Shown here one piece after another: positions 1,939 to 31,270 of a stretch of 64,000 nt of DNA. The stretch is from Octopus vulgaris. Its lineage: Eukaryota. Position numbers and translations under genes: made by a program. Below the pieces are notes generated by a model that searched no databases, had not been told where the DNA came from, and saw only the letters and a list, made by a program, of their open reading frames with translations. The first letter of the stretch is position 1, and each line of letters opens with the position of its first letter. The stretch spans positions 3,658,001 through 3,722,000 of the forward strand of contig OX597818.1 in the NCBI GenBank assembly GCA_951406725.2, in the 5' to 3' direction.

Positions 1939-2049
1939 TCTGACAGCTGTTTCGGCCGTAAGGACAAGTATGCCTCATTTAACCTATAAGCCATATAAGG
2001 CAGGTATAAATCAGACATTAACAAGGATGTCCCACGGCCTCTTCAGAGA
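1939..2049 (-). ncRNA. Hammerhead ribozyme (PLE-type, extended stem II)
   Basis: Reverse complement of the motif at 3716-3826. Confidence 0.8.
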
Positions 2050-3715
2050 ATTTAATTTATTATAAGTGTGAAAAAATCCAATATAGACTCTCATTTATTT
2101 ACTTATTTAAATGTAGATATATACATACATATCAATTATTTATTTTAATAATATATGGATACATGTATACTAGTTTGTACTTATACTCTGATTGTAATTT
2201 TAATTAATTCTTCTTATTTATTTTATCACATTTTAATCTTAAGTAATTACAATTATTAACTTATAATTAATTTAATTTTTGTTATTTACTTATATACCAT
2301 TGTATTGGTATGTCCTCCACTGATATTATTTAATGCCAAATCCTGTTAATTATTACATTTGTAATGCTTAAAAGTATATTTATATATAAGTACTATGAAT
2401 GTTTACTCGCAAGTCACATATGAAAATATACGGTGCGTATGTGTATGTCTGTTGTTATACATGAGTATTATTATGGGCATGTATATTTGAGTGTAATTCT
2501 ATTAGTTCGTAGGTTAGGTTCTTTGATGGATTAATATTAATATTATAATGGCATTGGATTTATTACGTAGAAATGATATATATTTATGCTATAAAGAATT
2601 TTTGTCTTGTCTTGTTTGTTTACATATCCCAGAATATTTGCTATTTTGACTTCTTACAATTAATCTCTTATAATTTAATTGCTATAAACCGATGTCAACT
2701 TAGTATATGTATGTTTCTATGTCTATTGATAGTCAGACAAAAATTTTTAATCTATACTTTATAACTTAGCGTACATTTGATTATAACAAATTACAGTGAA
2801 ATCAGTAAACGTTATGTCATGTAATACCATGACTACAGAAAAAACGATGCCATATGAATTGTGTACCTTATGAAAAATTACATTCTATGTCTTGATATAA
2901 ATATATGTATCTTTATAACAAATATTTTATGGAAATATGTGAGTTGATCTTCTTAGTTAATATAGCGGCATTGTTGTCGTTTTGGAGAGGCTTGATGGCT
3001 GCATAGTTACGATTATACCTCTTTTATTATTTATTTATTTATGTGTTTGGCTATGTTTGTGGATATGTATGGGTATGAGTGTATGTGTGTGTGTATACAT
3101 ATAATTATGTATGTATGTGCGATGGATCTGTGGATGTGCGTGTGCGTATGTGCGTCTCTTGACTAACTAACCGTAAAATTTCTTTTGTGATTCAAATTTA
3201 AAACTATAAGCCAATCGAATCAATCTAGAATAATCAATATCAAGCGGACAGAAGAATTAGACTTATAGATATGTAGATGTCCGATTGATGTACTTGGTAC
3301 AGTCATGGTTATTATTATTATTATTATTATTATTATTATTATTATTATTATTATTATTATTATTATTATTATTATTATTAATATTAATAGTAATTTTTAT
3401 TGACTTTTGTAGGGTTATAATTTTATGAACTGAACTGTGTGTTTTTTTTAATTATTTTTTATGTATATGTCTGATTTAAATTTAAATGTGAGTGTGCATA
3501 TATTTGCCTGTAGGTTAGTTATGGAACTAGAAGTCCAATATGTAGAATAACTGTGTTTGTTAATGTATATTGATATATTTTGTTTATTTTGTATTATTGT
3601 ATTAATGAGTATATATATATGTGTAGTATTATGAGTGTCTATGCACACGTTTTTATATTTTATATTTTTATATTTATATGTAAAAAAATTTTTTCACACT
3701 TATAATAAATTAAAT

Positions 3716-3826
3716 TCTCTGAAGAGGCCGTGGGACATCCTTGTTAATGTCTGATTTATACCTGCCTTATATGGCTTATAGGTTAAATGAGGCATACTTG
3801 TCCTTACGGCCGAAACAGCTGTCAGA
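3716..3826 (+). ncRNA. Hammerhead ribozyme (type I, PLE-type, palindromic stem III)
   Basis: tct-CTGAAGA-GGCCGTGGGACA...TGTCCTTACGGCC-GAAACAGCTGTC-aga: intact core, long stem II, ACAGCTGT palindrome, GUC cleavage triplet. Confidence 0.82.
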
Positions 3827-4030
3827 TATGATATAATTATATATTATATTTTATATTTTATATTTCTATTTCCTTGTCTAATTATATTTACAATATATTT
3901 TGTATAATGCCTTTGCTGTTATGTAATGGTGTAATAAAGTATTGATTGGGTATCATCTGATGGTTGATGTTTGATTGATTTAAGTATGTTTCTCCATTTT
4001 CTAATTTTGTATATATATATATATATATAC

Positions 4031-27700: not shown

Positions 27701-27910
27701 CCGTAAATGTCCATGATAAAACTCCGAATTTCGGATGCCGAGGTGGAAATCCACGCCGCCATCTCTTCAGTTTCCACCTCGGCATCCGAAACTCGGAGTT
27801 TTATCATGGCCACTGAATAATTGTCACATATTACATTTACAGATAAATTCCTCTATTTACATAATATCGAAGTCTCTTTCATTCTTTTGTTGTCTTACCA
27901 TTTTTATCAA
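27701..27910. mobile_element. Fold-back solo pLTR of the 15981-17561 PLE family, with a hammerhead core at 27715-27771 (minus)
   Basis: Homologous to 17760-17915; inverted halves are joined at about 27771. Confidence 0.8.
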
Positions 27911-30900
27911 TATATATATATATATATATATATTATTCATATTATTATATGATTGAATGCCACGCATTTATCTTAATAATTCTGATGCGCACTCTATACG
28001 ATCTATACGAGAGTAGAAAAACATCCAACAGCAGCTGATGAAGGGTCGCTCTTTATGTTGTTTGCCTTGTTTTCCATTTGTGTATTTCGTTGTTCGAAAA
28101 AATAGTTCATATTCCATGTACTCGTACTTCGAATTTTTTTGTTGTACAGTTTCATGACGTCCTGTGCCCACATATGCATTCCAAGTAAGTTTTATCTACA
28201 CACACACACACACACACATATATATATATATATGTATATACGTACACATGCATGTATGTATGTATGAATGTATGTATGTATGAATTATGTGTTTGTGTGT
28301 GTATACATATGTGTGGTGGTGTGTGACAGTGGTTAGTTTTTTGTGCTAATTGCTCGTAAGATTGTGGTTTTGATTCATGTTCTTTTGTAAAACAATTCAT
28401 TTCAAGTTGCCATAGTTCGCTTAACTGGCAAGTAAGTAATGAATGCTACGACTGACCGGTCTCCTGTCCAGGGGTGTGGGAACACAATACCCCACAAATT
28501 CCAGGAAACCAGCCTTGAGCCTGTGGCTCGAGAAGGGTCTTTGATTCTTTTGTTTTTGACACACACACACGCACATACACACATCTGTGTCTGTCTCTCT
28601 CTCTATTTGTCTGTTTGTCTCTCTATTTGTCTGTTTGTTTGTCTGTCTGTCTCTTTCTCTCTCTCTCTCTCTCTCTCTCTCTCTCTCTCTCTATCTATCT
28701 ATCAATCTATCTATCTGTCAGTCAGTCTGTCTGTCGATCTATCTCATTCTATATATACATAGCCATGCACATAAAGAGATTGTTATTTACATTATATGTA
28801 GATAGGAGTGTATGTGTGTGTGTGCATTTTTGTGTGTGCGTCTGTATATGCCCGCGAGTATTTGTGGATGTGTGCGCTCGCGCGCATGTGTGTGAATTGG
28901 TCCCCGTCGCTGAAGTTATTTATGGTTTAGAATTCTGTGCCAAACATGAGCCGCCGCAATTCCCCGAAGCCAAGTTGGGGTGGAGTTAGGCAACTTTTTA
29001 TCTCCGTATTTAGCAAGGCCACCCGAATATTAAATAACTCTGCCAGGTAGTAGTGCCCCACCCCTTACATTCCCATTACCCTTATTTCCTTCCTCGTTCT
29101 CTTATACGTTCCCAATGAGTGTGTCTAGAGAGAGAGAGAAAGACAGGAGAGAGCAGAAAGAAAGAAAGCTAGTGTGGGGGAGAGAGACAGTAGAGGGAGT
29201 ACGGAGAGAACAGTTAAGTGGGAGGAGAGAACATACACGCACGCACACCCACATGCACACACGCGCGCGCACGCACGCACACATACACAAAGACATAGAA
29301 ACATAATTACAAGCATACATTATTTATACAAACACACTTGTGCGTTTTGTGTCTATGTATATACATACATACATACACACACCCATATAGATAAATTGAT
29401 GTATATCTCCGCGCACATATATAGTTGATATGCACATACATGTAGCGTGTATGTGTGTGTATGAACATGTATGAATATTTGCAGGTGTGTGTGTGTGCGT
29501 GCGTGTGTGTGTGTGTGTATTTGTGCGTGTGTGCATCAGGCAGAAATAAGTGTGTTTAACATTTATCTATCCATCCATCCATTTATTCATCCACACACAT
29601 ATACATAGACGTACACACGCACACACACATACATATTTGCAATATACACATACGCAAACATACGCATACTCACATACATATACATACATTTACAGAGTTC
29701 TGAAAAGAAAGTGAGAGTAAAACACAGATAGGAAGAAAGAGAAGGCTGTGAAAAGAAGCGAATGGGTAGAGAGAGGGAGGTTGAATTATTTAGGAATTAA
29801 GAGGGAGAGAGGTAGGTGAAGGGAAAGGCTGAGGCCAGAGAATGAGAGACAAAGTAGGGAGTAGTGTGCGTAAAGGTTAATAAAGGAGAAGAGGAAAACA
29901 TGATAGAAAGACATGGAAAAAGGAAGACGAGCTGGAGGAATAAGGAAGAGGAAGATATTTGTGCGCGCGTGTGTGTGCGTGTATGTAAGAGATGTGTATA
30001 AGAGATATGTGTGCGTGAGTGTGTGTGAGAGAGAGAGAAAGAGAAAAAACAGAAAGATTTATGTGAAAGAGATAAAGTGATATGTGTTTGTGTGTATGAG
30101 AGGTATGTGTATAAGGGAAAGGTGTGTATGAGAGAAAGATAAAGAGATAGAGATGTATGCGAGAGGGATAGAAAGATTTGCGTGTAAGGGAGATAGTGTT
30201 GATGTGTGTATGAGAGCGGGAGGGAGGTGTGTTTGTGTGTATGAGAGAGTGAGTGAGATAGAGTGAGAGAGAGAGAGGGAGGGAGGGAGAGAGAAAGAGA
30301 AAGAAAGAGGGAAAGAGGGATGTGAGTGAAATGAAGAAAGGTGAGGTAAGAAGAGTATGCAAGCTGTCCTGTAGTTCATTTTATCCCTTCACTATTTATG
30401 GCGTTAACTGAGTGTTGGGTATCAAATTGTCGACATTGTTGTTGTTGTTGTCATGACTATAAGTGGAGAGATGGAGATTCTCAACAACAACAACAAAAAT
30501 AATAATGAAAGAAGCAGCAGACAACTTTTAATGTCTCAAGTAAACCTCATTGGTTCATCGTAAAGGTGTGGAACTATCTAACTCTTGCCCCCCCCCTCTC
30601 TCTCTTTCTGTCTCTCCCACGTTCTCTCCTCTTCTTTTTCAAATTCTCTCGCTCTGTCTCACTCCCTATACTCTTTCCTACTCTTTACCTCCTCCCTCTC
30701 CGCTAAATTCTTTATTTCACTCTCTCACTCTCTGTAGTATGGTATGGTTAGAAAGAATGTCTTTGCGTCTGTCATTGCTGTTTATGTATCTATAGCAATA
30801 TGTGTGTGTGTGCGTGCGCGCGCGTGCAAGTCTACGTATGTGTTTGTATATGTATGTGTATAAGCATGTATATATATATATATATATATATATATATATA

Positions 30901-30979
30901 TATATATATATATATATATATATATATATATATATATGCACACACACACACACACACACATATATATATATATATATAT

Positions 30980-31270
30980 ATTGATAAAAATGGCAAGACA
31001 ACAAAAGAATGAAAGAGACCTTGATATTATGTAAATAGAGGAATTTATCTGTAAATGTAATATGTGACAATTATTGATGAGCCATGATAAAACTCCGAGT
31101 TTCGGATGCTGGTCAATCACACAGCAATCTCCCTCTGTTTAACGGTTATTTTCATAGCATTTTTCCAATAGCCGGATAACTGAAGAGATGGCGGCGTGGC
31201 TTTCCACCCCAGCATCCGAAACTCGGAGTTTTATCATGGCTACCGAATAATTGTCACATATTACATTTAT
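30980..31270. mobile_element. Fold-back solo pLTR of the same PLE family
   Basis: 30980-31110 is an inverted partial copy; 31135-31270 is a direct copy homologous to 17715-17845. Confidence 0.8.
31175..31235 (+). ncRNA. Hammerhead ribozyme (canonical core, GUU triplet, 1-nt loop III)
   Basis: gataa-CTGAAGA-GATG...CATCC-GAAACTCGGAGTT-ttatc. Confidence 0.8.

Follow-up and report, generated by a model that had tools for sequence, protein, structure and literature searches.

Fourteen hammerhead-like ribozyme motifs crowd the left half of a 64,000-nt stretch of the Octopus vulgaris genome (assembly GCA_951406725.2, contig OX597818.1, positions 3,658,001 to 3,722,000 of the forward strand; "the window", numbered from its first base). 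We read them as the 3' tails of at least eight families of Penelope-like elements (PLEs), together with one retrozyme-like repeat, present mostly as short 5'-truncated copies in microsatellites. The motifs would likely cut only the element's own RNA, with the help of a second copy or of the element's protein, single copies being likely inert. We give this reading a probability of about 75%.

Hammerhead motifs and their families

A type-I descriptor gave 10 matches in bases 1-32,000. It asks for the core CUGANGA, in which one change is tolerated, and for GAAA, a stem III that is nearly palindromic, UH, and a stem I of at least 3 bp. As controls, 40 block-wise dinucleotide shuffles were used; for the same left part they gave a mean of 0.45 and a maximum of 2, so that the density there is well above that of shuffled sequence. 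To the right of 32 kb the descriptor gave no match, in agreement with a preliminary description of the window. Nine of the matches are motifs named in that description (1939, 3716, 14682, 17756, 20276, 22251, 25120, 25416 and 31175). The tenth, at 27069-27037 on the minus strand, had been overlooked there, as had a second motif of rewired order at 26173-26254 on the plus strand. Five motifs that it named (8084, 15558, 18347, 18916 and 27715) escape the descriptor because they are decayed. A hammerhead-like sequence was found at all 14 of its positions, on the strand that it gave, while its "about 9 families" needs amendment: the 14 motifs fall into 10 families, and into 9 only if 15558 and 22251 are merged as sisters. 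A looser descriptor (1.5-2 core changes) was discarded, its extra matches being no more than shuffles yield.

Perfect cores are found in families A, E and G and in one copy of F, and variant cores in B, N, H and I (Table 1). Stem III is tiny or palindromic, as had been described: it has 0-3 bp in the monomer, and its self-complementarity is lost only in the G and C copies, which are decayed. Paired changes that would suggest covariation occur between families and between sister families, stem I having C-G in B where C has G-C, and four Watson-Crick pairs occur at core positions 3:8; within families, stem changes are mostly decay. The motifs 1939/3716 and 18347/18916 form inverted pairs, each of which is probably one insertion, and this would bring the window to about 12 insertion events. 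The reported closeness to (TA)n and (CA)n also holds: a (TA), (CA) or (TG) run is no more than 250 bp away for 12 of 16 motif positions, compared with 45% of all positions. About 70% of the window consists of tandem repeats or of repeats matching other loci of the genome. Among the 150 of 204 matches listed in an Rfam scan of the window, hammerhead families are absent, and nearly all are microsatellites matched to microRNA models.

Table 1. Hammerhead-like motifs and their carriers in the window.
Position	Strand	Feature	Remarks
1939..2049	-	Family A type-I hammerhead; truncated copy of the 3716 element in opposite orientation	Perfect inverted repeat of 342 nt, 1736-2077 / 3688-4029
2077..3990	+	Family A Hydra-type PLE, AT-rich 3' tail	Fixed 3' end near 3990
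3716..3826	+	Family A type-I hammerhead, perfect core, palindromic stem III	Young family; copies 97-99% identical
7698..7854	+	Decayed PLE GIY-YIG remnant	tblastn E 2e-7 (weak)
8083..8124	+	Probable decayed hammerhead relic, family J	Weak; single copy among loci examined
14117..14474	+	Hydra-type PLE endonuclease remnant	tblastn E 3e-12
14682..14745	+	Family E type-I hammerhead, perfect core, bulged stem II	Core at 14688; stems kept in three other copies
15558..15592	+	Family C minimal hammerhead	U4C here and in many copies; broken palindrome; sister of B
15966..17561	+	Hydra-type PLE reading frame, 5'-truncated, reverse transcriptase and GIY-YIG	CxCX5C linker; DKT motif in inverted piece 15695-16198
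17756..17818	+	Family F type-I hammerhead	U4C in this copy
18348..18432	-	Family D decayed hammerhead	Inverted partner of 18916; stems I and II broken
18452-18721	+	PLE remnant, weak	tblastn E 9e-6
18916..18998	+	Family D decayed hammerhead, G12A	3' of the weak PLE remnant 18452-18721
20276..20310	-	Family N minimal hammerhead	Family-fixed A3:U8
20633..21436	-	Neptune/Nematis-type PLE gene, 3' part	CX4CxxC linker, GIY-YIG
21415..22420	+	Second Neptune/Nematis-type PLE (family B), gene end and 3' tail	Matches tail of the full element in locus L108
22251..22288	+	Family B minimal hammerhead	Family-fixed A6U
25120..25194	-	Family G type-I hammerhead, perfect core	Old family; palindrome broken in this copy
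25416..25453	-	Family H hammerhead, U3:A8 core	Tail of Neptune/Nematis-type PLE
26173-26254	+	Rewired hammerhead-like motif	Order: 5' strand of stem II, cut site, GAAA and finally CUGAUGA
26711..27554	-	Retrozyme-like insertion, ~355-nt non-coding unit, inverted ends	One hammerhead in the window copy
27031..27075	-	Family I type-I hammerhead, canonical-shaped	6-bp stem I, 4-bp stem II; family-fixed U3.G8
27715..27772	-	Family F hammerhead	Stem I 5' strand lost at inversion junction
~28005-28042	+	Truncated sister of the rewired motif	
31175..31235	+	Family F hammerhead, perfect core	

Penelope-like elements as carriers

Eleven of the 14 motifs, representing eight of the 10 families, were tied to PLE genes, in line with the association that had been proposed for the window. 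For families J, E, F, D, N and B the link lies inside the window, and for A and H it comes from other copies; 27715 and 31175 are tied through the family of 17756, and 18347 through that of 18916. Five loci had been placed just 3' of a PLE GIY-YIG reading frame or its remnant, and tblastn confirmed them at 8084, 14682, 17756, 18916 and 20276, all on the same strand as the motif, two of them weakly. The gene at 15966 carries both marks of the Hydra clade, the DKT motif and the CxCX5C linker.

The copies elsewhere in the genome extend this picture. In family A, 19 of 24 matches to the tail reach 3990, where the query ends at a TA run, and a Hydra-type GIY-YIG endonuclease gene lies upstream in 4 of 14 other copies. 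Full 4.4-kb units of the order tail-gene-tail were found for family B (locus L108, frameshifted) and for family H (locus L221, with a Neptune/Nematis-type gene). The copies of family B have a common 3' end and scattered 5' ends, usually inside (TA) runs, which fits the PLE biology described in PMC8557442. In the genome sample described below, a PLE gene could be detected in the 2.5 kb upstream of only 3 of the 91 motifs; the search used six genome-derived and 15 database queries, which cover the clades incompletely and miss some of them. Two side observations concern these carriers. Fourteen runs, guessed to be RNA, contain 0.44-0.53 of the words of 14100-18900, approximately the share of PLE gene plus tail. 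For family H (25385-25520, minus strand), 41 of 41 among the matches listed are 100% identical, so that this PLE has probably moved very recently.

With the Hydra and Neptune/Nematis clades (PMC8557442) the octopus elements share the C-terminal GIY-YIG domain, the DKT motif and CxCX5C linker (Hydra) or CX2-5CxxC linker, insertion at (TA)n, inverted 5'-truncated copies and hammerheads; they are further families and not different in kind. With the minimal type-I hammerheads of PLEs (PMC4209133) the motifs share the type-I fold, the tiny palindromic stem III, an extra base after A9, the location in terminal repeats, many families per genome, mostly solo copies, the U3-A8 variant and opposite-strand pairs 100-700 bp apart. 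Both the association of PLEs with hammerheads and its massive genome-wide scale were published in 2014 in that source.

Non-standard cores fixed in whole families

Several families carry a core that departs from the standard in nearly all of their copies. In family N, the whole core including A3:U8 is kept in 16 of 19 other gene-selected loci, and when positions 3 and 8 were left free in the search, A3:U8 was found in 426 of 435 exact genome matches. U3:A8, a published natural variant (PMC3088659, PMC4209133), is present in 19 of 20 in-register copies of family H. For family I, 215 exact matches were counted, and 97 of the first 100 carry U3.G8. Outside the window, a further family has G3:C8 in 10 of 12 copies, a pair mentioned as an engineered variant in PMC3884650. 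This family has a 7-bp stem I and often forms inverted pairs; it was seen at L096:247-353, about 50 kb upstream of the window, and in loci L080, L251, L261, L280, L284 and L026. Reversed-pattern controls for the exact-match counts gave 0. It can be seen that 20276 and 22251 are not decayed copies, an explanation ruled out by the family-wide occurrence of their core changes.

The A6U change of family B is the most widespread of these variants. The family has 12,797 exact matches, with U6 in 97 of the first 100; with 25 copies spanning the motif in 1.2 Mb, which corresponds to about 58,000 in the genome, it is the most abundant family sampled. In 28 copies taken from 1.4 Mb with a pattern omitting positions 3-9, C3, U4, G5 and G8 are present in 28 of 28 and U6 in 27, while N7 varies (A in 9, U in 9, C in 6 and G in 4). 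N17, also left free, is A, U or C and never G. At N7 the C-to-U changes are attributable to CpG decay, A and G are not. We take this pattern for a sign of selection on the ribozyme in master elements after fixation of A6U, though cleavage is not thereby proven.

Among sampled matches altered at 3:8, 22 are Watson-Crick swaps and 10 are single changes, compared with about 7 swap matches in shuffles. The alignment of 56 motifs in PMC4209133 contains C3-G8, U3-A8 and one U3/G8 (Saccoglossus); A3:U8, G3:C8, U6 and cephalopods are absent from it.

A retrozyme-like repeat and a rewired motif

Family I has the layout of non-LTR (long terminal repeat) retrozymes, that is, tandem non-coding units of 150-450 nt, each with a type-I hammerhead. 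Its units of about 355 nt stand in tandem dimers and trimers and bear a canonical-shaped type-I hammerhead, as in non-LTR retrozymes (PMC7229834; bioRxiv 10.64898/2026.07.22.740005), of which those of mussel have units of 350-390 bp (same sources). In contrast to the retrozymes described in these sources, family I carries U3.G8, and it is known here from its DNA layout. Trimers lie in loci L222, L223 and L228, and GAAA is broken in two of the three L223 units. In three of four runs, whose status as RNA is a guess, contigs cover the 355-nt unit; one contig joins its end to its start, a joint which tandem DNA shares. At G000:C1:94322217-94326399 the motif recurs at a spacing of about 1,380 nt, a tandem unit longer than the usual 355 nt.

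The order of the motif at 26173 was searched with a dedicated descriptor, which gave one match in the window. Its relatives, found by blastn, preserve stems I, II and III by paired changes; they lie in loci L186, L252, L171, L084, L172, L092, L224 and L270, belong to at least four sequence-distinct families, and in L092 and L172 form tandem pairs with a spacing of about 870 nt. Type-SGC hammerheads (PMC10085705) likewise have the cut site first, then GAAA, then CUGANGA. Unlike in that type, the best (5-bp) stem II partner of 26173 lies 5' of the cut site, so that block C is split where type SGC has it unbroken; some copies have a weaker downstream partner for stem II as well. No Naiad gene was seen beside rewired motifs in ten translated stretches. 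In the 1.2-Mb sample this descriptor gave 5 matches compared with 2-3 in shuffles, which is not a usable count.

Density in the genome

To estimate density, the type-I descriptor was run on 120 stretches of 10 kb (1.2 Mb) from 29 contigs, taken at round coordinates and thus not strictly a random draw, with eight shuffles as controls; numbers were extrapolated to the source genome of 2.80 Gb in 227 contigs. The sample holds 26 perfect cores, 48 matches when a Watson-Crick swap at 3:8 is allowed and 91 with one change, whereas shuffles gave 0-1, 3-10 and 15-24 (mean 21 for the last). The net numbers are about 60,000 perfect cores in the genome (bootstrap 39,000-84,000; one per 46 kb), about 96,000 with the swap allowed (one per 29 kb) and about 163,000 with one change (bootstrap 119,000-212,000; one per 17 kb). 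A genome-wide excess over shuffled sequence is therefore upheld, while the rate of roughly one motif per 2 kb is not: it is a local peak, and as a density it is overstated about fivefold.

With the same descriptor, the left half of the window has one motif per 3.2 kb, approximately four- to fivefold over the genome mean, and 200 kb beside the window gave 12 matches. For three sampled stretches to reach 9 matches, p was 0.0003, a value that ignores clustering and the post-hoc choice; for the whole window p was 0.02. The peak could not be put down to an excess of microsatellites: per 10 kb, (TA) runs number 14.4 in the left half, 13.7 in the sample and 0.3 in the right half. Over the 120 stretches, (TA) runs and motif count correlate weakly (rho 0.21, p 0.02). 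The left half is a pile-up of PLE-type insertions, and the right half is taken by other, non-PLE long interspersed elements (LINEs).

Of the "very large, unannotated load" that had been proposed, the size stands and the novelty in kind does not, since such loads are described in PMC4209133. That source gives 4,000 PLE hammerheads for coelacanth and 9,000 for Xenopus; the octopus estimate is far higher, but it comes from a looser descriptor. Up to 120,000 retrozymes are reported for axolotl (PMC7229834), so the absolute count in octopus is not a record. For giant squid, PMC6962438 gives 235 Rfam hammerheads only.

Origin and action of the motifs

The motifs may owe their number to the way in which PLEs insert. 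Reverse transcription would start just past the tail, each insertion would thereby keep the ribozyme even when the gene is lost, and the count would be inflated. Selection on master elements would keep the core paired (C:G, U:A, A:U, G:C or U.G at 3:8), while inserted copies would decay. The ribozyme itself likely acts on tandem element transcripts and is passively copied into each insertion. In monomer folds of eight motifs, stem III has 0-3 bp, and the hammerhead is less stable than the minimum-energy fold by 0.2-9.4 kcal/mol; in six of the eight, the stem III segment can pair with that of another copy, at -7 to -11 kcal/mol. Monomers of published PLE motifs are inactive and dimers weak (PMC4209133), and a PLE motif of lizard is cleaved only with the element's protein, no RNA-seq read ending at the site (PMC11167929).

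Several points weigh against the reading of the motifs as element tails that cut the element's own RNA. Ribozyme cleavage is dispensable for PLE insertion in vitro (PMC11167929), and in none of the nine families with matches are the 5' ends of insertions concentrated at the predicted cut sites, so that a genomic footprint of cutting in vivo is lacking. Such a footprint was hinted at by two copies of family I and was not upheld across families. A link to a PLE gene is absent for families C (15558) and G (25120) among the loci examined, and PLE clades were assigned from linker motifs. In family B the ACGU palindrome pairs weakly (-1.7 kcal/mol), and the family may be slow or dead, as A6 changes lower activity, A6C to below 0.1 per min (PMC3088659).

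Random matching in DNA rich in AT and in microsatellites seems hardly credible as an explanation of the motifs. About 21 of the 91 sample matches are expected by chance, a descriptor allowing two core changes adds only what shuffles give, and 8084 is weak; but perfect cores number 26 against 0-1 in shuffles, matches recur as repeat families with thousands of copies, and the reversed patterns found nothing. A chance origin is refuted for the 10 descriptor matches, though not for 8084. A more serious possibility, raised in the preliminary description, is that active ribozymes throughout the genome cut nascent host transcripts; they would do so alone or paired with a copy in the same intron. The estimate of about 60,000 perfect cores speaks for it, as do several copies with a full core and a 5-6 bp stem I, the 3-bp stem III of family F, and same-strand copies with common palindromes (20276 and 25416; 17756 and 31175). 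These same-strand partners are, however, 5-13 kb apart, stem III is weak and the monomer fold unfavourable, and published monomers are inactive and dimers slow (PMC4209133, PMC6765202). No host exon was found in the 75 of 120 open frames of the unmasked part of the window that were scanned, which gave one transposase domain and one match below cutoff. Cutting of nascent transcripts thus finds no support in the window and is opposed by published tests for single copies, and we consider it improbable. Introns of Xenopus contain fewer retrozymes than expected (bioRxiv 10.64898/2026.07.22.740005), so some cost to the host may exist.

Another explanation is that the variant cores, and A6U in particular, have lost catalysis, and that the fold persists because the element's protein binds it or through hitchhiking. 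Fast cleavage requires the contacts of A6 (PMC3088659), insertion in vitro still proceeds with ribozyme mutants (PMC11167929), the 5' ends leave no footprint, and the A6U family is the most abundant sampled. On the other side, subfamilies of B vary at N7 and N17 with the other core letters fixed and G absent at N17, as would be expected of a ribozyme whose cleavage matters; the preponderance of paired swaps over single changes at 3:8 points the same way. Dead cores are therefore unlikely, if slightly less so than widespread cutting of host transcripts. That the variant cores cleave the element's own RNA is about as likely as not. It would be a long step further for A3:U8, G3:C8, U3.G8, A6U and the rewired fold all to work, activated by dimerization or by PLE protein, so that about 100,000 copies make host pre-mRNAs cleavable under PLE expression. 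The genome would then amount to a natural mutation scan of the hammerhead core; we regard this whole claim as improbable.

What looks new is that whole families have fixed non-standard cores; otherwise the landscape shows in one more genome what was published in 2014. In the literature covered, which leaves out Lunse et al. 2017 and the last part of the 2014 supplement, no natural families with A3:U8, G3:C8 or A6U were found described. Nor was a survey of cephalopod hammerheads found in the literature. Lunse et al. reportedly list about 150,000 PLE-associated variants, and A3:U8, G3:C8 and A6U may already be among them. Family-fixed variants in hundreds to tens of thousands of copies make it testable whether the spread of PLEs requires hammerhead cleavage. 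Standard descriptors and Rfam overlook much of this RNA class.

Other features of the window

On the minus strand, 35995-46939 is occupied by a non-PLE LINE in two tandem copies, both young, with a zinc knuckle in ORF1 and with endonuclease, reverse transcriptase and zf-RVT domains. Next in the right half come an AAT-type microsatellite of 2.5 kb (about 47.4-49.9 kb) and older LINE fragments, which extend to 60 kb. A repeat of about 160 nt that resembles a short interspersed element occurs four times, as two head-to-head pairs, at 1289-1732 and 4030-4446 on either side of the family A insertion, with relatives at 17923-18080 and 26403-26556. Remnants of Mariner-type transposases (HTH_48) lie at 399-893 on the minus strand and at 6174-6386 on the plus strand.

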